From Candidatus Hodarchaeota archaeon (lineage in GTDB: Archaea > Asgardarchaeota > Heimdallarchaeia > Hodarchaeales > Hodarchaeaceae): a stretch of DNA of 64,000 nucleotides. Position numbers and translations under genes: made by a program. Shown piece by piece: positions 4,716-64,000 of this stretch; positions within the stretch are counted from its first letter, which is position 1, and each line of letters opens with the position of its first letter. The DNA is taken from positions 16,751 through 80,750 of the forward strand of contig JBHLKP010000001.1 of NCBI GenBank assembly GCA_048886525.1, read 5' to 3'. The notes below the pieces were generated by a model. The model searched no databases and was not told the origin of the DNA. It saw nothing but the letters and a program-made list of their open reading frames with translations.

Positions 4716-5948
4716 TTATTCTAAATTAATTTTTGCATTCAACATTCGTATTTGGTGCGCAACCTCTTCTGGAAATAATTGGGACAAACGAAGGTCATCA
4801 AGAATTTCTACTCCTCCTATCTGCTGAATAGGGATAATATCAATTAACATGTGGATATCGTTGTTATCGCCAAAATCAGCTTGTCGAATTAATACATTTC
4901 TGTCCTGCTGAATATTTAGATTCTGTCCAAATTTTTTTACAAACTGGGATATTTGATGATTTACAATTATCAATCCTCTCGCTAAAGATTTAATTTCAAA
5001 AGATTTTAGATTCCAAAGCGAAGAAACATGTCGTTTCGGTAATAAACGTAAATGACAGTCTCTTTCTGGAGCAAAAGATGTAAAACTTATCCAGTTTTCA
5101 TCCTCCCATGTTACTCTATCTTCAACAAAAACTTCTTGTCCTAGGGGATCTTTTTCAATCTTTTTGGGATATTGACAGCCTAAACAATACTCTTTACTAC
5201 CAGTCAGCTTCTTATGATTTTTATAGGCTTCTAAAAATCCCCTATTTTTCCAACCATAACCTTTTCTGTCATTAAAAAGGTAAGTTTGGGCATGAAGATG
5301 AGGAATACTAGCTCCTGCAGTAGAACCGATATTAAAAAACTGAATAACATTAGTTTTTTCTTTCCCTCCTGTTACAAAAAGTGCTTTTTGACTTGCTTTT
5401 ATAGTTAGTACAATATTTTGAAGTAAAAGTATCATTTCTTCTTCAGGAACATCTTCAATAGTTCGATAATGATTTCTAACAACATGGATCAATGGAATTC
5501 CTTTAAAAGTCCTTTTTGTTGAGATATCATTCAAATTAAATTCACGAAAAATTCTTGGTATCGGTGGATACAGGTTTATTGCAGAAAAAACTTTAGTAGA
5601 ACTAAGATTTTCATATTCGGGGGATTCAGATAAAGGATCTTTGGCTATCATCAAATCCTTTGAGAGAACAATAGAAGGGATTTCTCCTGCAATCAACCGA
5701 CAAAAAGAATCTTTCCCTTCTTTTAGCTCACTAATTTGGATATTCTTCTCTTGAAGCAGATATTCGTACGGTTTTTCTCCCCTTAATATGTTAATGACTG
5801 TGCTATGTCCTATCTTCGTTCTATTTTTAATGATTGTACGAAATGGATCCCATCTCTCTTCGGGTACTGATTCTAATTTTTCGTAAATTCCCCAGTGTCC
5901 ATTTATCTTAGGAATTTTACTTGAATTAGGATCAACTCGTTTTTTCAT
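4716..5948 (-). CDS. GalT-family (HIT superfamily branch III) nucleotidyltransferase/phosphorylase
   Basis: Active-site motif 'GASIPHLHAQTY' (H-x-H-x-Q) preceded by 'VFSAINLYPPI'. The second pseudo-repeat carries 'CLGCQY' and 'LRLLPKRH'. The first-half zinc motif is degenerate ('FCRLIAG' where the family has C-x-x-C). Confidence 0.7.
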   Translation of the reverse strand: MKKRVDPNSSKIPKINGHWGIYEKLESVPEERWDPFRTIIKNRTKIGHSTVINILRGEKPYEYLLQEKNIQISELKEGKDSFCRLIAGEIPSIVLSKDLMIAKDPLSESPEYENLSSTKVFSAINLYPPIPRIFREFNLNDISTKRTFKGIPLIHVVRNHYRTIEDVPEEEMILLLQNIVLTIKASQKALFVTGGKEKTNVIQFFNIGSTAGASIPHLHAQTYLFNDRKGYGWKNRGFLEAYKNHKKLTGSKEYCLGCQYPKKIEKDPLGQEVFVEDRVTWEDENWISFTSFAPERDCHLRLLPKRHVSSLWNLKSFEIKSLARGLIIVNHQISQFVKKFGQNLNIQQDRNVLIRQADFGDNNDIHMLIDIIPIQQIGGVEILDDLRLSQLFPEEVAHQIRMLNAKINLE

Positions 5949-51359: not shown

Positions 51360-51519
51360 CGTCCGAAAATAATATTTTCAGATAAGGATTGCTGGAATAA
51401 TTTATATATTATAAATATTTGGAACGCTTTATATAAGCTTTATAAATAAATAAAAAAAAGGTAGTTTTCCAAGTTTTTGAATATAATAACTATAGTCTCT
51501 AATATTTATTGATTGATTG

Positions 51520-54279
51520 ATGACACTTTCTAATAATGATCCTCATAAGCTGTGGAAGCATTACAACTCTACTCTTGAAGAATTTGTGCTTACAAAAGAT
51601 TTAGAGGAAGCAATATCTGAATTTCGCAAAATTATGGATGCTTCTCCTCCAATAGATCTTTTGACCGAATTAGCGAAGCGTTTTATTCAACTTAAACGAA
51701 TTGATGACGCTAAAAAGGCTTATGGTCTAATACTAACAATAGATAATACCCATCGTGAGACTTGGAAACAGCTTTCCTCTTTATATTTCAAACTCAAAGA
51801 TATCCCAAAAGCAGAGTTTTGTTTGAAAAAATATTATACTTTAGCAGGTGGAAATGCTCAACTTCAAAAAGCTAGTAAGGTTAGGCTTGCTAGTTCAGGA
51901 CGATTGAAAAAATTACCTGAAAATCAAGAATTAGGATTGCAAGATGGTATAACAATCCGATCTACTTCTCCCAGAACTGTAATGAGTCTTTCAGAATTTG
52001 AAAGGCGTTTTGAAATTTCAGTTAAAGATCTTCCACTAGCAGTTCAAAGAATAATTCAATTTTCTCAACATCAAATCGTAGATTATCGCTTTTTTGAGAA
52101 ACAAAGTGGACAAATGGGGACAGTAATTGAATCTTTAAATGAGCAAAATCTAATAGACACTTTAAAAAGCAGAAAAATAACCCATCTTTTTCAATTCCAA
52201 GAACAAGCTCTTAATGCTATTAATGCAGATAAAGACGTTTGTATCGTTGCTCCGACTGGAAATGGTAAAACAGAAGCCTTTCTTCTTCCTACACTTCTTA
52301 AGATAAAAAATTTCAAAGATTGTGGTGTACAACTTCTTCTTATTTATCCTATGAAAGCATTAGCTAAAGATCAATTACGTAAAATAGAGGATTTTGCAGG
52401 GATCCTAGGATTATCAGTTAAAGTCTTTGATGGGGATACTTCGCACTATTGGCGTAATAAAATATTTGCAGATCCCCCTGAAATACTTGTTACTAATCCT
52501 GATATTCTACATTATCATCTTGGAATTGGTCGTAACTCTAGTCGGTTTCAAGATCTTCTCATTGGGTTAAAAATTGTTGTTCTTGATGAAATTCATTCAT
52601 ATTCTGGAACATTTGGCTCTAATATGCATTTTATATTAAGACGACTTGAAAGAGTTGTGAATCAAAAGTTACAATTAATAGGCGCCTCAGCTACGGTAGC
52701 TAATGCAAATTCTTTTGCATCAAAGCTTTTAGATAGACAAATTAAGATTATTGAATGTAAAAATGGTCGTAGAGGTCGTTTACATTTCTTAATGCTTGCT
52801 CCTTTTACTGGAATGTCTACAATAGATGGAATGACTAGTTTAGTTAATAGTATTAAAGGAAAAGGTAAGATACTTGTTTTTCAGGATTCTCATAGAAACG
52901 TTGAATTACTTTACCAAAAATTAGGTGGTGCAGCTCAACATGTGGGTATCCATCGTGCTGGTTTAAACTTAAAAGTTCGTGAACAAGTTGAATCAGATTT
53001 TCGTGAAGGGAAAATCGACCTTTTAGTAGCAACACCGACACTTGAACTTGGAATTGATATTGGAGACTTAAATATTGTTGTGACTCCTCCGATTGCTGTA
53101 AACCGGGCAATGCAGCGTATTGGCCGAGCAGGAAGGAAGGGCCAAGAAGCTCTTGCCGTTATCCTGTTAAATGCAGAAGACCCAATTAGTAATTATTATT
53201 TTCATAATCCCGATAGATACTATCAAGATGTTGAGGATGTATTCGTTGACCCCTCAAATCCGAATGTAATCGAAAATCAGTTATTGTGTGCATCACTTGA
53301 TCAACAAATAGAAATCGCTGAATTTCCTGAGTACAAAGATATTTTAAATCGTTTAATTTCCAACAGTCTTCTTAAACAAGTAGGTCATTCAATTTTATTA
53401 CCGACAGAAGCGGGTAAAGAGCGTGCAAGAAAATATTCAATACGTGGTAAGAACCATGAAATTCAAATTAAGATTCGTGGCGGGTCTATAATCGGGAAAA
53501 GGGCTATGCCCCTAGCAATGTTGGAGTTATATCCTGGCGCCTTCTATTATTCAGGGGGTAGAAGATATCGTGTAGCTAGCTTTTATTTTAGCGGAACACG
53601 AGGTAAAGCCGAACTGATTAAACCAAAGAATGTATGGGGACAAACTTTTCCATTATCTACACTGAAACCAGAAATTTTGACTCTTTACTCCCCATTACAT
53701 TCAGTTTATGGTCTTGAAATAGCATATATTGAAACAAAAGTTCTTCAAAGTGTGTATGGATATTCCCTCCAAACTCCGAATGGGACATCTATACAAAAAT
53801 TACGGGATCCACTCTATTATGCTTCTCGTTCAAAGGGTTTAATATTTAGAACTCCTCCTCTCCCTCCTCATATCATTGATATTGATCGAACTACTTATAT
53901 CGCTTCTCTTCATGCTTTGATTCATGTGATTTTACATGCTAGTCTGCCATTTATCGGTGGTCAGCTTAGTGAAATAGGTGGTCTCGCTTTAATTCCTCAA
54001 GGATACATATTATTATATGATCAAGCCTCAGGGTCAGGAGTTTGTGCAATGCTATTAGAAAATTTACCCAAATTATTCCAACGGGCATATCAGATCTTGG
54101 AAGATTGTGATTGTAAAAATCCTCAGGGTTGTCCGCGTTGTACTTTTCTTCCTCGCTGTAGCCATAATAATACTAGATTAGATAAATATGGGGCACGAAA
54201 AATATTGACTTCTATTATTGAAGGGACATCAGTTCCATTGAAAAATAATTATAACGATTTTAACCAGACTTTTCATTAA
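51520..54279 (+). CDS. COG1205/MrfA(YprA)-like DEAD/DEAH helicase with C-terminal DUF1998 zinc module and N-terminal TPR-like extension
   Basis: Motif I 'APTGNGKTEA', II 'VVLDEIHSY', III 'GASATV', V 'LVATPTLELGIDIG', VI 'QRIGRAGRKG'. C-terminal 'DCDCKNPQGCPRCTFLPRCSHNN'. The first ~110 aa are TPR-like. The track ORF opens TTG-ATG; the ATG at 51520 is used. Confidence 0.85.
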   Translation: MTLSNNDPHKLWKHYNSTLEEFVLTKDLEEAISEFRKIMDASPPIDLLTELAKRFIQLKRIDDAKKAYGLILTIDNTHRETWKQLSSLYFKLKDIPKAEFCLKKYYTLAGGNAQLQKASKVRLASSGRLKKLPENQELGLQDGITIRSTSPRTVMSLSEFERRFEISVKDLPLAVQRIIQFSQHQIVDYRFFEKQSGQMGTVIESLNEQNLIDTLKSRKITHLFQFQEQALNAINADKDVCIVAPTGNGKTEAFLLPTLLKIKNFKDCGVQLLLIYPMKALAKDQLRKIEDFAGILGLSVKVFDGDTSHYWRNKIFADPPEILVTNPDILHYHLGIGRNSSRFQDLLIGLKIVVLDEIHSYSGTFGSNMHFILRRLERVVNQKLQLIGASATVANANSFASKLLDRQIKIIECKNGRRGRLHFLMLAPFTGMSTIDGMTSLVNSIKGKGKILVFQDSHRNVELLYQKLGGAAQHVGIHRAGLNLKVREQVESDFREGKIDLLVATPTLELGIDIGDLNIVVTPPIAVNRAMQRIGRAGRKGQEALAVILLNAEDPISNYYFHNPDRYYQDVEDVFVDPSNPNVIENQLLCASLDQQIEIAEFPEYKDILNRLISNSLLKQVGHSILLPTEAGKERARKYSIRGKNHEIQIKIRGGSIIGKRAMPLAMLELYPGAFYYSGGRRYRVASFYFSGTRGKAELIKPKNVWGQTFPLSTLKPEILTLYSPLHSVYGLEIAYIETKVLQSVYGYSLQTPNGTSIQKLRDPLYYASRSKGLIFRTPPLPPHIIDIDRTTYIASLHALIHVILHASLPFIGGQLSEIGGLALIPQGYILLYDQASGSGVCAMLLENLPKLFQRAYQILEDCDCKNPQGCPRCTFLPRCSHNNTRLDKYGARKILTSIIEGTSVPLKNNYNDFNQTFH

Positions 54280-54352: not shown

Positions 54353-55618
54353 ATGATAACTTCTAGATGTACTTTAACAACTATTATTGGATTTCTTTGT
54401 GGATTTATTATTTATCCAAGTGTTGTATTTTTATTACTTTGTGGAGGAGTTGGTTATTTTGTTGGTCAATTCTTGGATAGCATTGATGTAAAAAATCAAT
54501 TAGATACATTTAATAGCATCCACGCTACTCAAGACATTTTTCATCCAGAGGATATACCTGAAGCAATTATTATTTATTCACGAAAAGAAAATCTTACATC
54601 TGTTCTGATCGACTTCAGAGTGAATAGTAAACCCCAAGACTTTAGACTCTCTGTTCTTAAAAATTTACAGGAATTCGATTTTCGGATTATAGAGGATGCT
54701 AATAAAACCACATTTAACCTAATTCTCGAGTACCCTAACTGTAATTATCCAAAAATTATGACAATGAATGATAAAAAGGAAGAAATTCATTTTGATATAA
54801 AGGAAAGAAGTAAAGATTTTCAATCTGCATTAAAGAAGATAGTTCCTGGATTAGAGATTTTCCCTTCCCTCTATCCTGATCTTTATGGAGATATTAATAT
54901 TAAGGAAATGATTAGCCCTTTGAGCATTGATTATAAATTTCATCCTCCCCCTTCATTTATGAACCCTGAAACTGATTATAGATCAGATTATTTTGGAGTT
55001 AATAGAAATGATAGCAATACCCTAGCAAATGATAATATTCCAATCAATTTTAATCAGAATAACATCTATAAGGAATTAATCGATTACCCTCCTTCCCCCG
55101 ATATGAATAATGGTAGTGAATTTGATGTTACATCAGAAAAAAACAATATAAACCATGATACAATAATAGGTGATTTAATTCCTAAAGGTAATTTGGATAA
55201 TTCATCTATAGAAATTTCCGTTCCAGACCTATCCCCTGATGACATTAAAGAATTAAAAGATATGAACGCTAGAGTACTTAAATCTTTCTTAGAGGATGAA
55301 AATTCAGATGATATTTCCTTGGGCTTAAAAAAAGCAAATCAACTAGAAGAAAACCACAAGAAGCTTCCTGCTAAATTACAAACAAATTCTGATGATATTG
55401 AGGAATCTAAATATATAAAAATTGATTATTCTAATGTCCAAAATTATGATGGAGATATAAGCCCCGTTGATGAATTTAGCACAAATTTCGTTGATAAGAT
55501 CGAAAAAGAAATATTCAAAATGAAGAAAAAAAAGATTGATCCAGAAATTTACGAAGAACCAAATACATTAAGAGAAGTTCTAAAGGATAGAAAACCATTA
55601 GACAATTCTGTGAGTTAG
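54353..55618 (+). CDS. membrane-anchored protein with acidic/Asn-rich low-complexity tail
   Basis: N-terminal hydrophobic hairpin 'LTTIIGFLCGFIIYPSVVFLLLCGGVGYFVGQF', then about 370 aa without recognisable motifs. Confidence 0.5.
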   Translation: MITSRCTLTTIIGFLCGFIIYPSVVFLLLCGGVGYFVGQFLDSIDVKNQLDTFNSIHATQDIFHPEDIPEAIIIYSRKENLTSVLIDFRVNSKPQDFRLSVLKNLQEFDFRIIEDANKTTFNLILEYPNCNYPKIMTMNDKKEEIHFDIKERSKDFQSALKKIVPGLEIFPSLYPDLYGDINIKEMISPLSIDYKFHPPPSFMNPETDYRSDYFGVNRNDSNTLANDNIPINFNQNNIYKELIDYPPSPDMNNGSEFDVTSEKNNINHDTIIGDLIPKGNLDNSSIEISVPDLSPDDIKELKDMNARVLKSFLEDENSDDISLGLKKANQLEENHKKLPAKLQTNSDDIEESKYIKIDYSNVQNYDGDISPVDEFSTNFVDKIEKEIFKMKKKKIDPEIYEEPNTLREVLKDRKPLDNSVS

Positions 55619-55624
55619 TCTATT

Positions 55625-56158
55625 CTACAAAGTTAATTTTTCTACTTGCAACATATCACAATATAAGCATTTTAGTTTTTCTTCAATAAAAAATAAAAAT
55701 TTAGTACAATATGGACATCTGATTGTAATCTGACTGATATTATTACTTAATTTTCTTAATTCGTTTTCTTCGTCCATCTTAGGCGAAATTAAAAGCATCA
55801 GACTTTGTTTTTCCTTAATATTAAGAGGAGCTCGTGCTATGTGCAAAATAGCCTGTTTCTTCTCTCCAAGTTGTCGTAAGCATTCAATTATCATCCTATT
55901 GATCATTAGATCATTTGTTGGCAAGTAATTTTGTAGATAAGCAATAGTTTTCGAGTACTCTTTTCTCTGAAAATAAATCAAAGCTAGCTTCTGTTTTACC
56001 TGACTTCTATGACTGGGTGAACTACGAAAGAGGTATTTTAGATTAGCTAATGCTTCATCCCAATTCCCGTTACTAATTTTTTCATCAATTTTATTGAACA
56101 TTTCTGCTTTTTTCTTCTCTGTTTCAGTACAAACACGGAATTTTTTATTTTGTGGCAT
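55625..56158 (-). CDS. TPR-like protein with C-terminal zinc ribbon
   Basis: 'WDEALANLKYLF...KLALIYFQRKEYSKTIAYLQ' is TPR-like. C-terminus 'RCPYCTKFLFFIEEKLKCLYCD' is CxxC-x12-CxxC. Lies 4 nt downstream of the 56163-56723 gene. Confidence 0.5.
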   Translation of the reverse strand: MPQNKKFRVCTETEKKKAEMFNKIDEKISNGNWDEALANLKYLFRSSPSHRSQVKQKLALIYFQRKEYSKTIAYLQNYLPTNDLMINRMIIECLRQLGEKKQAILHIARAPLNIKEKQSLMLLISPKMDEENELRKLSNNISQITIRCPYCTKFLFFIEEKLKCLYCDMLQVEKLTL

Positions 56159-56162
56159 ACTA

Positions 56163-56723
56163 TTATTTCTCCATTTTGGAATGGTGATTTTTAGACCTTT
56201 CCCAAAGTGGAAGAGTTGGAAATCTAATTCGATATCTTTTATTCATAACTCGAAGTACTTCTTTACGAACTTCTGGACTTAATTTTTGGCGTTTAGCACG
56301 TAATCTAATCCTTAAAGCTCCCTGATTTGACATCGTAATTATACCTATTCCTTGCGTCTCAGCCCAAGATAGCTGTTGGTGTTTCGTCACAGAGTCGAGA
56401 TAATCAAATTGCTCGTTAGGACATAATAAGTAACAAAAATCACAAAATTCCTGATATATAGTCGGATGTTGAGCGTGAAGTTGGATCTCAGCTTCGAAGA
56501 AATAAATAGAGCTATCTATCTGATTTATGGCTGCTAAATCAATTCTAATTTGCTCCTGTTTTGTTGGGGTCAATTTTCGGATATCTAAATATTTTGATGT
56601 GATCTGCAATTCAGTGTATGTTTGAAATTTGAGTTTTTCCACAAGAATATTATCAAGATGAATGATTAATTCGGACTCTGTTGTAACTTCTTTAAACCAC
56701 TTATTTTTTGTCTGTTCATGCAT
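56163..56723 (-). CDS. MmcB-like PD-(D/E)xK-fold protein (tentative)
   Basis: 'RIDLAAIN...IYFFEAEIQL...YQEFCDFCYLLCP...GIGIITM' is colinear with the remembered MmcB pattern D..A...vEiK.s..Df...Y...cD.fy..vP...GlGli. Q occupies the Lys position. Confidence 0.4.
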   Translation of the reverse strand: MHEQTKNKWFKEVTTESELIIHLDNILVEKLKFQTYTELQITSKYLDIRKLTPTKQEQIRIDLAAINQIDSSIYFFEAEIQLHAQHPTIYQEFCDFCYLLCPNEQFDYLDSVTKHQQLSWAETQGIGIITMSNQGALRIRLRAKRQKLSPEVRKEVLRVMNKRYRIRFPTLPLWERSKNHHSKMEK

Positions 56724-57096
56724 TTTTCTTGTCCTTTACCCAAAAAAACTAGTCCTGAATTCTTTGAGGGTAAAAACCTCATTATATTATTATATCAATC
56801 ACTTATATATTAGAAAAGCAGTTTAGGGTATAAAACTAGTTAAGCCTCTACTCTGTCGAAAAGTAAATTCACTAAAGAAAAAGGATTTTCAGTAAATCCA
56901 AGCTGAATACGGTTCTTATTTTTCTGTATTCTTTATTATTATAATTAATTGAAGATATATTAAAAAAAATCATTCACTGATTAAAGAGACCAAGTTTTCA
57001 CAAAATATTTCTAGAGAGAATCCAAGATTTTCGAATTTTTAAAGCTCCTAGACAATTCTAGATAGATATAGATTTTCATGTTATTGGTGAGCTTTG

Positions 57097-57408
57097 ATGG
57101 TTAGTAAATCAAGCATTCCTGTAGATGATATACCTTTCCTTGATGAATTATTTGTTAATAGTCCTTTATGTCAAATTTGTGAATATGCGAACATGTTTGG
57201 AGGAGTATGCTCCCTCTTACTCAATCGAAGAGTTCCAGATCTCGTTATAAAAAAGGCTAGAATAATGAGCTGTTCCGCGCATCGAAATTGGGTGCTTGAA
57301 CTGGATGATTCTTTGGTTAATCTATGGAATGAGTCAAATGAGGATGACCCAGTATCATTCAAAAATTCTCTTGACCAAAATAAAAAGCATAACTCCTATT
57401 GGGGATAG
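57097..57408 (+). CDS. small Cys/His-containing protein
   Basis: About 103 aa with 'CQICEYANMFGGVC...MSCSAHRNW'. Its 3' end overlaps the Hef-like ORF by 10 nt. Confidence 0.4.
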   Translation: MVSKSSIPVDDIPFLDELFVNSPLCQICEYANMFGGVCSLLLNRRVPDLVIKKARIMSCSAHRNWVLELDDSLVNLWNESNEDDPVSFKNSLDQNKKHNSYWG

Positions 57409-59315
57409 TTGTTAATTTGAAGACTAAAGAAACCACTCCATATCTTGATAAATTAAATTTCAAACCCTCTTTGAACGAACAACTTCTTTTATCAAAAGTA
57501 CATGACCATAACATTTTGATCGTCTCTTTAAAAAATGAACCATTAATACGAATATTATCCCTAATAATTCTGTTTTACTTGAAGATGAACTCTTCTCCGC
57601 AAGTTTCACCGAAGGTTCTATTATTAATGAAGAGAAACAGTCAACAATCAATCAAATCATTACTAAAAACTTATTTAAACAGTTCAACTACTATACATAA
57701 CAGTTCTATCCTTCCAAATGCTAGACGACAAGATTATAATCGTTTTTCTATTATTCTTTCAACACCAAAAATAGCTAAAAACGATCTAAAAGAGGAATAT
57801 TTCACAAAGGATTTTTTCTCCTTAATAATCATTTTAAATGCAGAAATGGGCTCATCTTCAAGATTATTAAGATTTTTAGTTAATCAATTTACACATAGTC
57901 GAATTATTGGATTTACGCAAATAACTAATCTTGAAAGGCTGGAACAGATATGTAAAAATCTTCATATAAAAGAAGTACACCAGCTGGAAGAAATTCAAAA
58001 GACTCTTGAAAGAAGTAATATACAGTATTATTCAATCCCATTACCAAGAGAGTATTTCTTTGTTCTTGAGTTACTAGATCAACTTCGTCTTCATGAATTA
58101 AATGGATTGCAAAAATTAGGTTATGATGTTTCGCCAAAAAGCACTTCTCGAGAAATTTCTGTTATTCATGAGAGTATAAAAAAAGAAGGAGCTGATAGAA
58201 AGCAACTAGTGGTTACAGGAAATTTACAGCGTATTATAAGACTTCAAAAAATAATTATTTCCCAAGGATTTCACTCTGCTTTACAATACTTCGACTCCTT
58301 GGAGACACGGCAAAAAGTTGAAGAAAATTTTCAAGGAAAACAAGCCATTATCGTTTTTCTAAATGACATAAAGGTACAGAAATTGCGTGAATTTCTCAAA
58401 ATCCAAGAAAATCTTTTCCATCCTAAAACACAAATGATATTAAAAATAATTTCCGAATATAAATCTGGAATTTCAATTGTTACACATAATTATGACAATG
58501 CTCGATTTTTAAAACAATACCTTGAAAAAAATGGTTTTTCTAATATAATACAACTCGAACAACCAATTAGTTCAATGTCGCGACTGAATCTAGAGAAGGC
58601 AATATTACATTTTACACATGGAAAATCGGATATCTGCATAACTAATTCAGTCAATGCATTCATAGCGGGAAATGCTAAAGTTATAATCGTTTATGATGTT
58701 AATGCAGAGATAATTGATACACTAAATGATCTAAGTATTGATATTCCGAAAGTATTCTTACTCGCTAAACAAACAAACGAAGAAACTAGATTTTTTAATT
58801 TAAAAAAGTTAGGAACACGTCGTCAGATTCCAGAGTTGAATCTTAGTATTGTTAATAAAGCTTTAAGGAAGAATAAAGAGCTTAGAAAGAAAGATTCTGG
58901 CACTGGTAATAATATAAATATATTTAATGGTTCAAAAAGCATATTAGCATTTTCTTCGTTGTTATTTGAGTATGGTATTCCCTATACGTTTTCAAAAAAA
59001 AATTATTCAATAATTTTGGATAAGGATATTTTATATCCTGGAATTATTATAAATAAAAAAGCTTGTATATTGTTACTCATTCCAGAGACGATAGAATTCT
59101 TTACTTCAAAACAACTTCTAAAAATCCTTAACGATATACAGGAAAAACACTCTACTATTTACATTGTTATTTCTTACAGAATTATGGATAAAATGAGCTT
59201 CCAGTTTAGATATAATCTCTTTCAAATAACAAATCAAAGTAATTCATATTTATTTTTCCTGATACAAGAGGAAGATCTTAACAAGCTAGTTACTAAAATA
59301 GCTAACCTAGAGTAG
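57399..59315 (+). CDS. Hef/FANCM/XPF-family homologue with degenerate helicase and ERCC4-nuclease motifs (pseudoenzyme candidate)
   Basis: Colinear with the Hef helicase core but catalytic residues are replaced. 'ILIVSLKNEPLIRIL' replaces motif I. 'IILSTPKIAKNDL' matches 'ATPQtieNDL'. 'LIIILNAEMGS' replaces 'DEAH'. Also 'IIGFTQ', 'HPKTQMILKII', 'ICITNSVNAFIAGNAKVIIVYDV'. C-terminal 'NYSIIL..GIIINKKACILLL' sits where ERCC4 has GDY...ERK...D. TTG start, uncertain. Confidence 0.55.
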   Translation: MGIVVNLKTKETTPYLDKLNFKPSLNEQLLLSKVHDHNILIVSLKNEPLIRILSLIILFYLKMNSSPQVSPKVLLLMKRNSQQSIKSLLKTYLNSSTTIHNSSILPNARRQDYNRFSIILSTPKIAKNDLKEEYFTKDFFSLIIILNAEMGSSSRLLRFLVNQFTHSRIIGFTQITNLERLEQICKNLHIKEVHQLEEIQKTLERSNIQYYSIPLPREYFFVLELLDQLRLHELNGLQKLGYDVSPKSTSREISVIHESIKKEGADRKQLVVTGNLQRIIRLQKIIISQGFHSALQYFDSLETRQKVEENFQGKQAIIVFLNDIKVQKLREFLKIQENLFHPKTQMILKIISEYKSGISIVTHNYDNARFLKQYLEKNGFSNIIQLEQPISSMSRLNLEKAILHFTHGKSDICITNSVNAFIAGNAKVIIVYDVNAEIIDTLNDLSIDIPKVFLLAKQTNEETRFFNLKKLGTRRQIPELNLSIVNKALRKNKELRKKDSGTGNNINIFNGSKSILAFSSLLFEYGIPYTFSKKNYSIILDKDILYPGIIINKKACILLLIPETIEFFTSKQLLKILNDIQEKHSTIYIVISYRIMDKMSFQFRYNLFQITNQSNSYLFFLIQEEDLNKLVTKIANLE

Positions 59316-59617: not shown

Positions 59618-61387
59618 TTAATCACTCAGGGAGGGGGTTATATTTAATCTGAAGAGTCGATTCATTTTAGCAAAAAATAGGTCATATGCATTATACAAGG
59701 TTTGAATATCTCGAAATACACGAGTTTTTGGTAAAATACTTCGAAATCTAATAGCCCGATAATCTAAGATAAGACTAGCTGCAAAATCAGATTCTGACCT
59801 AATTCCTCTTCCAATAGCTTGGGAAACATTTCGTGTGACAGGAAGCGTATTACATATATGTTTTGCTATTCTAACACCCCATTTCTGAGCGTAAAGTGAT
59901 TTCAATAAACGGTTGGTAGCATCAGGACGAGGATAAGGAAGTCCAGCTATGATTATTAAAGTTAATAGACTACGATTATTTTTATCAAGAATCTCAATCC
60001 CTTCTGATAATTTACCTCCTAATACTCCGAAAATACATTCATGATTCTTCTTTTTTAAATCGTCGACGAAATAAGGTGAAATTCCTGGATTTTCAATGTA
60101 AATTTGAGGTAATGACATATATGCTAGGATTTTATCTTTAAATTCGTGTGATGTTGCATACACAATTGTATGGAAAGGATTACTTTCATGGAGTCTTTGG
60201 ATAACACTTGCCATAGACTTATATGTTAAGGCAGTTCTTTCGTTATATTTTGAGGTAAATCTGCGATGATAGATGATACCATTCAAACCAAATTGAAAGT
60301 CTGAGGGTATTTGCAATGATGCATAGGATAAGCCATAAAGAGCTTTATAGGAAGATAAAGGTGTAAAAGTTCCTGACATTAAAATTACACGAGAAAAGTC
60401 TCGGTTGATAAATGAGAAAGACTGATGGGGAAATGGATTTAGCTGTAAAAGTCTATTTTCTTCCGAAACCCATATATCACCTCTAGATGTAAGAAAATCT
60501 TTGATCTTCAGCAGATGTGATTTTTCCAAGAGTGATAGTTTTTGATCATGATCTAAAAAGGCATCTAGGCTTGTAGATGATAAATGACGAGGCCTTTCAA
60601 CCCGATTTCTGAATGAAATAATTAGATCTTGCAATTCATCAAATACTTTCAACGGAATAAGAGCTCGAGCTCTATTAAGATCTTCAATGCTAATTTCCGA
60701 TTCAATATTTGCAGTAAAGTTATGCCCTTCGTCAATAATCGCAATTTTTTCAGGAAAAGTGCTTTGGATAAGAAGCTGCGAAAACATTTCTTGCAGATTT
60801 TTACTCCTTAAATAAGTATGAGTAGTCACAACTATGTTTGCATAAGGTATACATCGTTTAATAACATGATAAGGGCAACCAAAATCACTAAATGCTTCTT
60901 TGTAAGTATCTATTGATATAGAACCATTCGTAGCGTTCGAGGTTATTGGAATTTGTTCAACAATTGCAGGAAAGTCTTCTTCAGGAATTGATCTTGTTTG
61001 TTCTAAATATGGACACTTAATCTGTCCACAAACTCCACGAAAAAATTGGATTCGATCGTTTTTAATACAGAGATCTGCTTTTAAAATCAGGGGTACTGCA
61101 GTAAGGTATCCATATTTTTTAGAATTAGCAATTTTATGAATTTCATTTAGAAAAACCCGAAAAACTTGCGCTTTTGTTCTTACAAAAATGTACAATTGAA
61201 AGTTTTTTTCTTTAACCAGAGGTAATGTTGAAATTAGAGCCATAATAGTTTTACCGAATCCAACTGGAGCATGGATCATTACTTTTGGATGTTTTTCTAC
61301 AAATCGAAGAAATTTCGTTTGGTATGTTCGAAGTTCAGGATGAGGAAATAACTGTAATGAGGGTGGAAGATGATTACTATCAATCAT
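59618..61387 (-). CDS. XPD/Rad3-family (DinG-like) Fe-S helicase
   Basis: Motif I 'HAPVGFGKT'. Four-Cys Fe-S insert ('DLCIKN','GVCGQIKCPY','FGCPYH'). Motif II 'IIDEGHNF', 'LMSGTFTP', 'GGKLSEGIE', 'IIAGLPYP', 'QAIGRGIRS'. Confidence 0.85.
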   Translation of the reverse strand: MIDSNHLPPSLQLFPHPELRTYQTKFLRFVEKHPKVMIHAPVGFGKTIMALISTLPLVKEKNFQLYIFVRTKAQVFRVFLNEIHKIANSKKYGYLTAVPLILKADLCIKNDRIQFFRGVCGQIKCPYLEQTRSIPEEDFPAIVEQIPITSNATNGSISIDTYKEAFSDFGCPYHVIKRCIPYANIVVTTHTYLRSKNLQEMFSQLLIQSTFPEKIAIIDEGHNFTANIESEISIEDLNRARALIPLKVFDELQDLIISFRNRVERPRHLSSTSLDAFLDHDQKLSLLEKSHLLKIKDFLTSRGDIWVSEENRLLQLNPFPHQSFSFINRDFSRVILMSGTFTPLSSYKALYGLSYASLQIPSDFQFGLNGIIYHRRFTSKYNERTALTYKSMASVIQRLHESNPFHTIVYATSHEFKDKILAYMSLPQIYIENPGISPYFVDDLKKKNHECIFGVLGGKLSEGIEILDKNNRSLLTLIIIAGLPYPRPDATNRLLKSLYAQKWGVRIAKHICNTLPVTRNVSQAIGRGIRSESDFAASLILDYRAIRFRSILPKTRVFRDIQTLYNAYDLFFAKMNRLFRLNITPSLSD

Positions 61388-63984
61388 TAACTCTCCTCCT
61401 TTCTCCTATCCTTTTCTAGTTCATCAAATAAAGACCTATTGTTCAAATTAAGTTCAAAAAACAAATCTAATATACCAGTATTTGGGTAGACATCCATCTC
61501 TAAATCACAGGACATTTTTTGGAGATGAAAGTAATTATTATCAGGTAAAAAATCATCCAATACGGTTTTTATCGAAGTCGGTTTTATCGAGGAAGCTTGA
61601 AGGGTTCTTTGTATCTCTTCATCAGTTCTTTTATTATGTTCATTCGTAATTTCTAAGTTCAGATTATTACACATCGCGTTTGCTAGTTCGAATAAGTTGT
61701 TAAAATCCTGCCATTCTAGCGATTCTATCATCAATAAATCATAATATTCGGCAACTCGCGCCCATGGAATTGATGTTAGTTTTAAATGCCGTAGATAATT
61801 TAATAATCGGCCAATTAATGTTTTAACTTTGTTATTCGTTTCTAATCGATCTGTTAATGATGAAGATATATCATATAATGATTCTAACCTTTTAAATTCA
61901 TCAAGAGAAACTTCAACTTCTTTTCTACTTAGCGGAGTAGGTAGTGAGGCTAGAAACTTGTACTGTTCATTATAATAGTCTCTTCCTTTCTGATTTATCG
62001 TCCAATATGTAGCACCTTTGTCAGATTGTGTATCCCACAACCCTAAAGGCAAAAATTGATCTAATGATATTTCTCCGTGCTTATTAACCTCTATCAAAGC
62101 AATTGCTTCATCTTTTCCAGCTGGTCGATTGATTAAAAGTTTCAAAATCTTCATTAATAGGTCATATTTATCTGGAGTGAGGCCTAGTGTTTGCGATCCC
62201 CTTTGTTTCATTTCTTTAAGTTCAATGGGTTGGAAATCGATTGAAATATTGGGTGGGTCAATTTTAAAATGAAAACCAACGTTTTGAGGTGCATCTTCTC
62301 GGAATAACAGTCCTTCTCCATCAGATATTCCTAAAAATGGTTGTTTTGAGTAATTATCAGGTAAGAGTTCATGTATAGATCTTACTATCTCCCTGTCCTG
62401 TAAAGAAACCATTTTCAGATAAATATTATTTTTTATTTCCTCAAAAGAATCCATATTCTGAGACAAGGCCTGTAAGCTTTGAGTTCCTAGAATAAGAACA
62501 TTGTTTTGAGAAATTTTATTGCATGCATCCACTAAACTCGATGGAATAACAGCTTTTGATCGTCCATAAGCAGTTTTCCGAGAAAGAAATTCCTCTGAAT
62601 GAGTTAAAATCATACATCCCTCTTCTATTTCAGATAGAAAGTGAAGAAGAAATGCTACAGTAGCTCTTCTAATGAGAGGTGGTTGGGCACCAAACTGAAA
62701 GAAAGTAAGAGTTTTATCACGAGTTAAGGTATTACTATAATGTCCAGCGAAACCCGAATAGTTCACCTCTGGAAATGATCGAAAGTGATCCAAAATCCCT
62801 GCAAGTGAATCTATTGCCATCATATCTGCAAACATCATGTCCGTCTCTGCTTTTTCGACTTGAACATCAGTAATATTCGCTCCTCCGATGTTTAATTTTA
62901 CTTCTTTTAGAGTGAAATTATATATTTCCTCTGCAGTCTTCTTTATTTGTGCCTCAAGAGGTATTGAAAATCTTTGCGATAAGTAATCTGATGTATTAAG
63001 AGAGCTCAAAAGGATTTGGGATATAATATGGGATTTCCATGCAGCTCGAGCTTTTAGATCATTTTTCTGTCCACTTGGAGGAAGTGGAATAGTTACATCA
63101 CATAAATTTAGATGAATATTAGTACCTAAACGAAATATTTGTAAATTTAAATCACCTAATTGTGTTGGATTGTGTTGAAGATACTTTATGACACCATTCA
63201 TCTCATTTCGTGAGTCGATCACGAATATTTGACGATTTGCTCTAGTCTTTGCGAATGATACTGTTAATTTCTGCAATACAGAGATTATGTCTAGGTTATT
63301 ATAACCACAGGTTAACACAGTCCCCCTACTAATTTTTGGTAAACCTACTGGTTGAGAGGAGTCGTCAATTCGAGTACCTATCTTATGGACAACTGGGAGG
63401 TTTTGAACAGGATAATCATAAATAATTCTTGAAGGAACCCTATCTAGTTTGAGAAATGGTTGAATGAGTTTCGAATGAAACCCTTTCAATCCTCTGAAAA
63501 CACTTATTCCTTCTGATATTTTCTCTCCATGTAAATGTGCGTTTAATAATCTTTTACCGGTGATCAATGTGATATTACATCCACTAGCCTCTAAGAGAGT
63601 ATAAGTCATGGATCGACGTTTTAAAAATTCTCTACGTGCTTCACGGAGAACTGAAGGTAGAGTTTTTTCGGATCTAATTCGAAATTTCAAGGAAACTCTA
63701 ACAAGGAGCATTAATCCTGTATATGATTGACCAATTTGATGTTTTTTTGGATTTGTAAGAGGAGCTGGGAAAATTTGTCGGATAATTTGCACACCAGGCT
63801 GACTAGAAGTACGAAAAAGATTGTTTGACGCATCTGTAAAGTCTTTTGAGGGTTGTACACCAAATATCGACACTAGTATTGCTAAAGGTGATGTCAACAG
63901 TTCATCAATATCTCTATTTTGTATCTGAAGTGAAAGTAGTGTTGATTTGTCCTCCAGAAGTCTTGTGGCAAGTTGCGTATTCAA
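61387..63984 (-). CDS. large HerA/FtsK/VirB4-superfamily-like protein with degenerate Walker motifs and C-terminal winged-helix/helical region (tentative)
   Basis: 'RGTVLTCGYNNLDIISVL...RQIFVIDSRNEMNGV' sits where HerA-type ATPases have 'H..ilG.TGSGKS...vlviD..gEy'. 'GCMILTHSEEFLS' is at the Walker B/DEAH position. 'NNVLILGTQSLQALS' resembles 'g.il.tQrpsdl'. Its stop overlaps the XPD-like start (TAATG). Confidence 0.4.
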   Translation of the reverse strand: MNTQLATRLLEDKSTLLSLQIQNRDIDELLTSPLAILVSIFGVQPSKDFTDASNNLFRTSSQPGVQIIRQIFPAPLTNPKKHQIGQSYTGLMLLVRVSLKFRIRSEKTLPSVLREARREFLKRRSMTYTLLEASGCNITLITGKRLLNAHLHGEKISEGISVFRGLKGFHSKLIQPFLKLDRVPSRIIYDYPVQNLPVVHKIGTRIDDSSQPVGLPKISRGTVLTCGYNNLDIISVLQKLTVSFAKTRANRQIFVIDSRNEMNGVIKYLQHNPTQLGDLNLQIFRLGTNIHLNLCDVTIPLPPSGQKNDLKARAAWKSHIISQILLSSLNTSDYLSQRFSIPLEAQIKKTAEEIYNFTLKEVKLNIGGANITDVQVEKAETDMMFADMMAIDSLAGILDHFRSFPEVNYSGFAGHYSNTLTRDKTLTFFQFGAQPPLIRRATVAFLLHFLSEIEEGCMILTHSEEFLSRKTAYGRSKAVIPSSLVDACNKISQNNVLILGTQSLQALSQNMDSFEEIKNNIYLKMVSLQDREIVRSIHELLPDNYSKQPFLGISDGEGLLFREDAPQNVGFHFKIDPPNISIDFQPIELKEMKQRGSQTLGLTPDKYDLLMKILKLLINRPAGKDEAIALIEVNKHGEISLDQFLPLGLWDTQSDKGATYWTINQKGRDYYNEQYKFLASLPTPLSRKEVEVSLDEFKRLESLYDISSSLTDRLETNNKVKTLIGRLLNYLRHLKLTSIPWARVAEYYDLLMIESLEWQDFNNLFELANAMCNNLNLEITNEHNKRTDEEIQRTLQASSIKPTSIKTVLDDFLPDNNYFHLQKMSCDLEMDVYPNTGILDLFFELNLNNRSLFDELEKDRRKEES

Positions 63985-64000
63985 TCCTACTCCTGATAGT

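Follow-up and report, generated by a model that had tools for sequence, protein, structure and literature searches.

A predicted pseudo-HerA protein encoded between radA and an XPD-family helicase gene in Asgard archaea

A 64,000-nucleotide stretch of DNA from Candidatus Hodarchaeota archaeon (assembly GCA_048886525.1, contig JBHLKP010000001.1, positions 16,751 to 80,750 of the forward strand; hereafter the window) encodes on its minus strand an iron-sulphur (Fe-S) helicase of the XPD/Rad3 family, immediately preceded by a gene for an 865-aa protein. What is this upstream protein, for which the placeholder name X is used here, and why does its gene stand directly before xpd? To our knowledge, little is understood of how RadA/Rad51 is regulated in the archaea related to eukaryotes, nor is it clear what archaeal XPD does in the cell. 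We favour, with slightly better than even confidence, a reading of X as an inert pseudo-HerA, a non-enzymatic subunit acting with RadA and XPD in a repair module, and the radA-X-xpd operon offers a concrete, testable hypothesis on both RadA regulation and the role of archaeal XPD. The two genes and the signals that surround their starts are the following.

63990..63994, minus strand: AGGAG, resembling a Shine-Dalgarno sequence, 5 nt upstream of the X start codon TTG (sequence inspection)
61387..63984, minus strand: gene X, 865 aa, with TTG start at 63984 and TAA stop at 61389-61387 (open reading frame list)
61395..61399, minus strand: GGAGG, Shine-Dalgarno sequence for xpd within the 3' end of X (sequence inspection)
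61385..61389, minus strand: TAATG junction of the X stop and the xpd ATG, 1-nt overlap (sequence inspection)
59618..61387, minus strand: XPD/Rad3-family Fe-S helicase, 589 aa (open reading frame list, Pfam, PDB sequence matches, motifs)

A preliminary description of the locus had claimed that the X stop overlaps the xpd start, and both open reading frames (ORFs) do lie as described, with one nucleotide in common: the minus-strand junction reads ...GAG AGT TAA TG ATT..., with TAA at 61389-61387 and ATG at 61387-61385. The GGAGG within X is separated from the xpd ATG by 7 nt. A TAATG overlap is by itself common in prokaryotic operons; together with the internal Shine-Dalgarno sequence, it suggests that X and xpd are co-translated. 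The same 1-nt overlap is found in a relative that is 87% identical (locus L032), with gaps of 6-11 nt in L002, L003 and L029 and of 90 nt in L031. In L032, the TTG of X lies in an identical context (atcaggagtaggaTTG), 46 nt past the radA stop, and because this context is conserved, the TTG start of X is credible and the window ends in the radA-X spacer, which supplies its final 16 nt, radA itself lying beyond the window end. The database call for P0002 in L032 (4715-7414, 899 aa) runs 34 codons too far into radA, its likely start being the conserved TTG with AGGAG at 4817, as in the window. A search of RNA runs for co-transcription found the sequence contained in sediment DNA runs only, and a promoter and terminator scan, made with a sigma-70-type model that is uninformative for archaea, returned counts at or below shuffle expectation.

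The arrangement was followed across a locus set that combined a species-representative genome scan (20 loci), individual protein look-ups and a tblastn/hidden Markov model (HMM) survey; the genomes compared are metagenome-assembled genomes (MAGs), some with inconsistent phylum labels, and three complete chromosomes hold one locus apiece. The full triad of radA, X and xpd occurs in L032, L002, L003, L017, L018, L023 and L024, and X adjoins xpd in L008, L020, L034 and L036, where the radA side is lost at a contig end. The triad is present as well in two deep branches, L029 (P0095, 1114 aa) and L031 (P0078, 1053 aa), whose X proteins are ~16% identical to each other; in L029, the radA stop overlaps the X start. 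Counted by lineage, the triad occurs in at least 10. This survey of the genes upstream of xpd establishes that the pairing recurs and is not peculiar to one genome. The gene upstream of X encodes RadA, with NF003301 scores of 322-412 bits against a cut-off of 259 (L002, L029, L031 and L032) and HHH_5 and Rad51 matches in Pfam, and radA is the first gene of a unit with X and xpd. Since the adjacency of X and xpd is conserved among genomes whose X proteins are only ~15-45% identical, it lies beyond chance. Neither X nor RadA adjoins xpd in the ~6 kb upstream flank of nine more distant XPD loci (22-29% identity). The slot is conserved, often with overlapping or nearly overlapping codons. It is most economical to suppose that X acts together with RadA and XPD in recombination or fork repair. 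In a neighbour-joining tree of X, the triad lineages make up a paraphyletic basal grade and all unlinked ones fall in one derived clade, which suggests that the triad is ancestral and that X left it in one derived Hodarchaeales clade, radA and xpd remaining adjacent; members of the unlinked clade in which the two are still neighbours include L010 and L033.

What kind of protein occupies this slot could not be read from sequence libraries. X matched nothing in Pfam, NCBIfam (E<=0.1), PADLOC, PHROG or the PDB sequences (single-sequence and profile searches), and ten distant relatives searched against Pfam and NCBIfam at E<=0.01 returned nothing but a sub-threshold AAA match in P0083 (E 0.0049, 17.7 bits against a cut-off of 21.2). 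X was then considered through an AlphaFold2 model built from 39 sequences (mean predicted local distance difference test, pLDDT, 77.7), with secondary structure assigned by DSSP, and through a separate model of its C-terminus (residues 583-865, pLDDT 77.7). The predicted layout is given below, the core being of the ASCE (additional strand, catalytic E) type.

63400..63984, minus strand: X residues 1-195, N-terminal alpha/beta domain (DSSP on the AlphaFold2 model, pLDDT mostly 74-90)
62245..63399, minus strand: X residues 196-580, HerA/FtsK-type ASCE core without catalytic residues (Foldseek)
61990..62187, minus strand: X residues 600-665, winged helix-turn-helix (C-terminal domain model, pLDDT 78)
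61390..61989, minus strand: X residues 666-865, helical bundle or tail (AlphaFold2 models)
61543-61560, minus strand: LDDFLP motif, X residues 809-814, after a low-confidence linker (conserved in the family alignment)

The best Foldseek match of the X model in the PDB is HerA (4d2i; E 2e-9, probability 1.00, template modelling (TM) score normalized to the target 0.50), placing the protein in the HerA/FtsK superfamily to which it had been provisionally likened. Further matches include the T. kodakarensis HerA-NurA complex, bacterial defence HerAs, VirB4/TrwK, TdpAB and T4CC, as well as TrwB with a TM-score (target) of 0.55, and all 34 PDB matches at E<=1e-3 fall within the HerA/VirB4/TrwB group. 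A viral structure library also returns FtsK/HerA-type nucleoside triphosphatases (NTPases). HerA proper has an N-terminal HAS barrel and a NurA partner gene; in X, the N-terminal 195 residues are modelled as a mixed alpha/beta domain, and the adjacent partner gene is xpd. Beyond the core, the C-terminal ~265 aa are modelled as a winged helix followed by helices, in agreement with the helical or winged-helix tail first proposed. The winged helix resembles PadR, ArsR, Sso10a, STIV F93 and AspA, with TM-scores (target) of 0.5-0.6 at a root-mean-square deviation of ~4 A and weak Foldseek E-values of 0.07-0.9, and in the C-terminal domain model, the helical part (666-865) has no significant Foldseek match.

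Would such a core still hydrolyse nucleotides? The segments that decide this occupy the following positions.

63289..63324, minus strand: X residues 221-232, GTVLTC-GYN-NLD, Walker A position, no GK[ST] (model and 48-member alignment)
63202..63225, minus strand: X residues 254-261, FVIDSRNE, HerA-type 'hhhD..gE' strand after the first helix (D257 in 48/48, E261 in 42/48)
62590..62619, minus strand: X residues 456-465, GCMIL-THSEE, Walker B position, with T-H for the acidic D-E (model, alignment)
62479..62499, minus strand: X residues 496-502, VLILGTQ, sensor-1-like strand (model)
62293..62319, minus strand: X residues 556-564, GEGLLFRED, HerA/VirB4-like terminal strand (top-conserved motif of the X family)

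The degenerate P-loop and Walker B motifs that had been quoted for X sit at those structural positions in the model, the short motifs being CGYNNLD (226-232), FVIDSRNE (254-261), ILTHSEE (459-465) and LILGTQ (497-502). At the P-loop site, strand 221-226 (GTVLTC) leads into a loop of three residues (GYN) and then helix 230-246; at the Walker B site, strand 456-460 (GCMIL) runs into T-H where D-E would be expected, and TQ closes strand 496-501. Among 48 aligned family members drawn from all branches, none has the Walker A Lys or Ser/Thr, G227 being the only invariant residue at that site, and the acidic pair of Walker B is conserved in no subfamily, others carrying SP, NG, DR or EN. Because neither feature survives in any of the 48, the loss of catalytic residues is ancient and family-wide; judged from the alignment, the predicted catalytic defects are a property of the family and no local decay. 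Other positions are held firmly: G203, G214, G227 and D257 are invariant, and G287, N289, L560 (47/48), R562 (46/48) and D564 (46/48) nearly so. The persistence of these positions without the catalytic residues points to purifying selection on a non-catalytic function of X. The same residues can be turned to a different account, in which X is active after all, as an unconventional NTPase or translocase that uses D257, E261 and R562 as substitutes and moves on DNA alongside XPD. Its core fold is well preserved, and these polar residues beside the former nucleotide site vary little or not at all (48/48, 42/48 and 46/48, respectively). We nevertheless regard this account as distinctly improbable, given that the loop at the P-loop site has only three residues with no Lys or Ser/Thr in any member, that the Walker B site holds T-H, S-P, N-G or the like, an acidic pair being conserved nowhere, and that no P-loop family HMM recognises X.

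The family is small. A word-index search recovered 58 full-length homologues (41-87% identity), all annotated as hypothetical and from Heimdall/Hodarchaeales MAGs, and an exhaustive profile search of 1.84 billion representatives returned 55 proteins at E<=1e-3. The MAGs that hold distant full-length members (750-1140 aa) bear the labels Heimdall, Hermod, Odin or 'Asgard group', and every named member is from an Asgard MAG. No relatives were found in a metagenome scan with the P0095 subfamily alignment or among the 2.9 million viral contigs of IMG/VR. Because the family is small and, as far as its members are named, confined to Asgard archaea, the presumed ancestral group of eukaryotes, X is best regarded as a lineage-specific addition to the recombination machinery.

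Taken together, the fold and the gene order allow a role to be sketched. X would begin with an alpha/beta domain, continue with an ASCE core and a winged helix that binds DNA, and end in a helical tail; its gene would be the middle one of an ancestral Asgard operon, radA-X-xpd, set inside a larger repair cluster. X would contact DNA by the winged helix, might assemble as HerA does, and would link XPD, a 5'->3' Fe-S helicase, with RadA-dependent recombination or fork repair. That X touches its partners, what oligomer it forms and whether it promotes or restrains RadA filaments are conjectural parts of this sketch. A more specific version, which we put forward only tentatively, makes X an Asgard-specific recombination mediator, a dead HerA-type ring or platform that sits on DNA by its winged helix, physically bridges RadA to an XPD-family helicase and controls the loading or removal of RadA filaments. 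If true, such a mediator would be a prokaryotic counterpart to the eukaryotic Rad51 mediators and the Fe-S helicases RTEL1 and FANCJ, in a cluster that also holds Hef/FANCM-like and MrfA-like helicases.

Several observations weigh against a joint role of X with RadA and XPD. Contact of X with either protein is a proposal drawn from gene order and fold, and assignment of X to the HerA/FtsK superfamily depends on a predicted structure: Pfam, NCBIfam and the PDB HMM searches give no HerA match, and the TM-scores are modest (0.5), owing to the extra domains in X. X also stands alone in 8 of ~20 main-family genomes (L001, L004, L006, L011, L013, L015, L016 and L022); on the complete CP070695 genome, 19 nt separate radA from xpd in an otherwise intact cluster and X lies ~600 kb away. 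Since X is far from radA and xpd in these eight, its tight coupling to them is dispensable. In L035, an 87-codon in-frame ORF between radA and xpd (1262-1522) joins the first ~30 and the last ~47 residues of X, with ~790 codons deleted; this may be the scar of a deletion, a variant of the strain or an error of assembly, and it suggests that X can be lost from the radA-xpd slot. Finally, three paralogous X-like subfamilies have other neighbours and no xpd (L026-L028, by YdjM, and L030).

Some of these facts feed the main rival to the favoured reading, co-regulation only, under which X is an independent winged-helix DNA-binder, for instance a regulator of the repair cluster or a chromosome-organisation factor laid out like FtsK (an ATPase-like core, then a C-terminal winged helix), that has a promoter in common with radA and xpd without acting on their products. 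X is unlinked in a whole clade while the adjacency of radA and xpd persists, paralogous subfamilies have unrelated neighbours, and the C-terminal domain is reminiscent of transcription factors of PadR/ArsR/MarR type and of AspA, which binds centromeres. Yet the exact slot between radA and xpd, with its tiny gaps or overlaps, is held across subfamilies ~15% identical, relocated X in some genomes remains in the repair cluster beside the MZB helicase described below (in L009 and L010, where the two genes adjoin), and an 865-aa multidomain pseudo-ATPase is atypical of a simple repressor. We therefore consider co-regulation alone rather unlikely and retain a pseudo-HerA that acts with RadA and XPD as the better account.

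Among the X-like subfamilies, the proteins of L026 and L028 are ~750 aa long and 26-27% identical to X over the aligned part; their genes are consistently divergent from a gene for a YdjM-family membrane protein, with no helicase near, and their function may differ from that of X. In the MAG GCA_048885365.1 (labelled Odinarchaeota), there are two paralogous X-like proteins: P0095, with an XPD-like gene directly downstream (L029), and P0098, apparently on one 9094-nt contig with the XPD-like P0149, which suggests that the X-XPD module has been duplicated there.

The 589-aa partner helicase matches DEAD_2 (1.4e-11) and Helicase_C_2 (1.4e-18) in Pfam, and its closest PDB sequences are archaeal XPDs (Thermoplasma 3.7e-39, Sulfolobus 1.5e-26), with eukaryotic XPD, CHL1 and FANCJ scoring far lower. 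As the preliminary description had it, the GKT, DEGH and QxxGRxxR motifs and four Fe-S cysteines are all present, marking an intact XPD/Rad3-family helicase (GFGKT at residue 43, DEGH at 219 and QAIGRGIR at 523; C107, C120, C125 and C171). By motif alignment they map as follows.

61247-61261, minus strand: helicase motif I
within 60875-61069, minus strand: the four cysteines of the helicase
60722-60733, minus strand: DEGH of the helicase
59798-59821, minus strand: helicase motif VI

GFGKT, DE[GA]H, QxxGRGIR and the four cysteines are invariant across 16 XPD sequences, distant operon partners included, and the cysteines probably form a 4Fe-4S domain inserted in helicase domain 1. The protein does not reach the TIGR00604 rad3 cut-off (122.2 bits against 246.95), so it represents a divergent branch of XPD.

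One database match sets this helicase in a different light. The PADLOC model PDLC01439 ('typeIV_DinG, CAS-IV-A associated') matches the 589-aa protein over its full length at 4.8e-54, so that automated defence annotation would probably mislabel the gene; in NCBIfam, TIGR03117 Csf4 reaches only E 0.017. The match invites the view that the X-XPD pair is an anti-virus defence or mobile-element module, either HerA-based (as in Sir2-HerA or DUF4297-HerA) or akin to the type IV-A CRISPR DinG, and the bacterial defence HerAs among the structural matches of X and the single MAG with two paralogous X-XPD pairs could be cited in the same sense. We hold it to be very improbable: X has no PADLOC, PHROG or viral-contig match, no CRISPR or tandem array occurs in the 40-64 kb examined, the operon leader is the housekeeping RadA, the flanks carry ordinary metabolic genes at flat GC, and the context pattern follows the clades of the X tree, with one locus apiece in the three complete chromosomes. 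Type IV-A CRISPR DinG (Csf4) itself was rejected, there being no array and no Cas-like matches among the neighbours other than non-significant ones to Cas6.

The pair is embedded in a wider conserved cluster, in which radA->X->xpd is followed by an opposite-strand Hef-like gene, by genes for a 186-aa protein and a tetratricopeptide repeat (TPR) protein, and by opposite-strand genes for a 421-aa protein and a helicase with an MrfA Zn-binding (MZB) domain. In the window, its members beyond xpd are the following.

57399..59315, plus strand: Hef-like superfamily 2 protein, 638 aa (NCBIfam Hef 3.6e-21, helicase part only)
56163-56723, minus strand: conserved 186-aa protein (synteny, alignment)
55625-56158, minus strand: TPR protein, 177 aa (TPR matches in Pfam, synteny)
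54353-55618, plus strand: 421-aa protein (synteny)
51517-54279, plus strand: MrfA-like helicase with TPR, DEXH and MZB regions, 920 aa (Pfam DEAD, Helicase_C and MZB; synteny)

The Hef-like gene is syntenic in L002, L008, L010, L017, L018, L023, L024, L032 and L033. Its motif I GKT is absent in 13/13 aligned orthologues, motif II is degenerate (NAEM, DAKM, DYAE) and no ERCC4 nuclease domain was detected in the 638-aa protein, which on these residues looks like a second pseudo-enzyme in the conserved cluster and recalls the inactive helicase-like domain of XPF-type proteins. A 104-aa Cys-containing ORF (57094-57408, plus strand) has 10 nt in common with the start of the Hef-like gene and, with a 103-aa gene called at the equivalent position of L032, is probably a real small gene of the cluster. 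The 186-aa protein, whose gene keeps its syntenic place in every genome with the cluster, has the motif 'RIDLAA...FFEAExQ...HP..Y..FCD[YF]CYL[LV]CP' and may be PD-(D/E)xK-like with a Cys cluster; its sole matches are non-significant ones to Cas6 (E 0.03-0.05). At the far end of the cluster, the 920-aa helicase combines N-terminal TPR repeats, a DEXH core and a C-terminal MZB (DUF1998) domain. It lies directly downstream of X in L009 and L010 and ~1 kb upstream of radA in L029. The window is AT-rich throughout (GC 0.29-0.36), with no local anomaly.

How does X compare with systems already described? A full-text literature search found no description of the X family, of a radA-X-xpd operon or of an inactive Asgard HerA, and a preprint on the phylogeny of Asgard RadA says nothing of gene neighbourhoods. 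Among PDB folds searched with Foldseek, no eukaryotic counterpart of X appeared. The window helicase is close in kind to archaeal XPD (Thermoplasma Ta0057, 4a15/2vsf; Sulfolobus, 3crv), with which it has DEAD_2, Helicase_C_2, the four cysteines and motifs I, II and VI in common, but its Asgard clade is divergent (122 bits against 247 for TIGR00604) and fixed beside radA, an arrangement absent at the nine more distant XPD loci. RTEL1 and FANCJ are eukaryotic Fe-S helicases of the XPD family that act on Rad51 intermediates; the resemblance is a functional analogy only, the window helicase being genetically tied to RadA and closest in PDB sequence to archaeal XPDs.

For X itself, the best structural match to the core is HerA of the HerA-NurA system, the archaeal end-resection helicase-nuclease (4d2i, 9x1l). 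Both proteins have the motif order of strand-loop-helix, 'hhhD..gE', Walker B strand, 'TQ' strand and 'Ge.hh' strand, and each has its gene beside that of a DNA-processing partner, to which it is linked in translation, in a recombination setting. Unlike HerA, X has neither catalytic residues at Walker A and B nor any HerA/DUF87 HMM match, and it carries a C-terminal winged helix and helical tail of ~265 aa, and its partners are XPD and RadA instead of NurA, Mre11 and Rad50; a canonical NurA gene is found elsewhere in the related genome L001. FtsK has the same layout as X, an ASCE core and then a C-terminal winged helix able to read DNA, but is a much weaker match (2iut, E 0.019) and an active membrane-anchored translocase, whereas X has no predicted catalytic site. 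Strong structural matches also come from Sir2-HerA/Nezha (8j4u, 8sub), DUF4297-HerA (8zit, 9c1m) and TdpAB (8wfd), and in the bacterial HerA-effector complexes, as for X, a HerA-family protein is paired with the enzyme of an adjacent gene; the bacterial defence HerAs, however, are active ATPases of sporadic defence islands, whereas X is inactive by prediction, chromosomal and tied to radA, with no PADLOC match.

The usual partner of a HerA-family protein is an enzyme whose gene lies alongside, NurA, Sir2 and DUF4297 being examples. The pairing of X with XPD parallels HerA-NurA and the Sir2 and DUF4297 effectors, except that the partner would supply the motor, X being inert by prediction. X would thus add a pseudo-enzyme branch to the HerA/FtsK superfamily: the pairing of a HerA-family protein with a DNA enzyme is known, and the new elements are the pseudo-ATPase, its winged-helix tail and its RadA and XPD partners.

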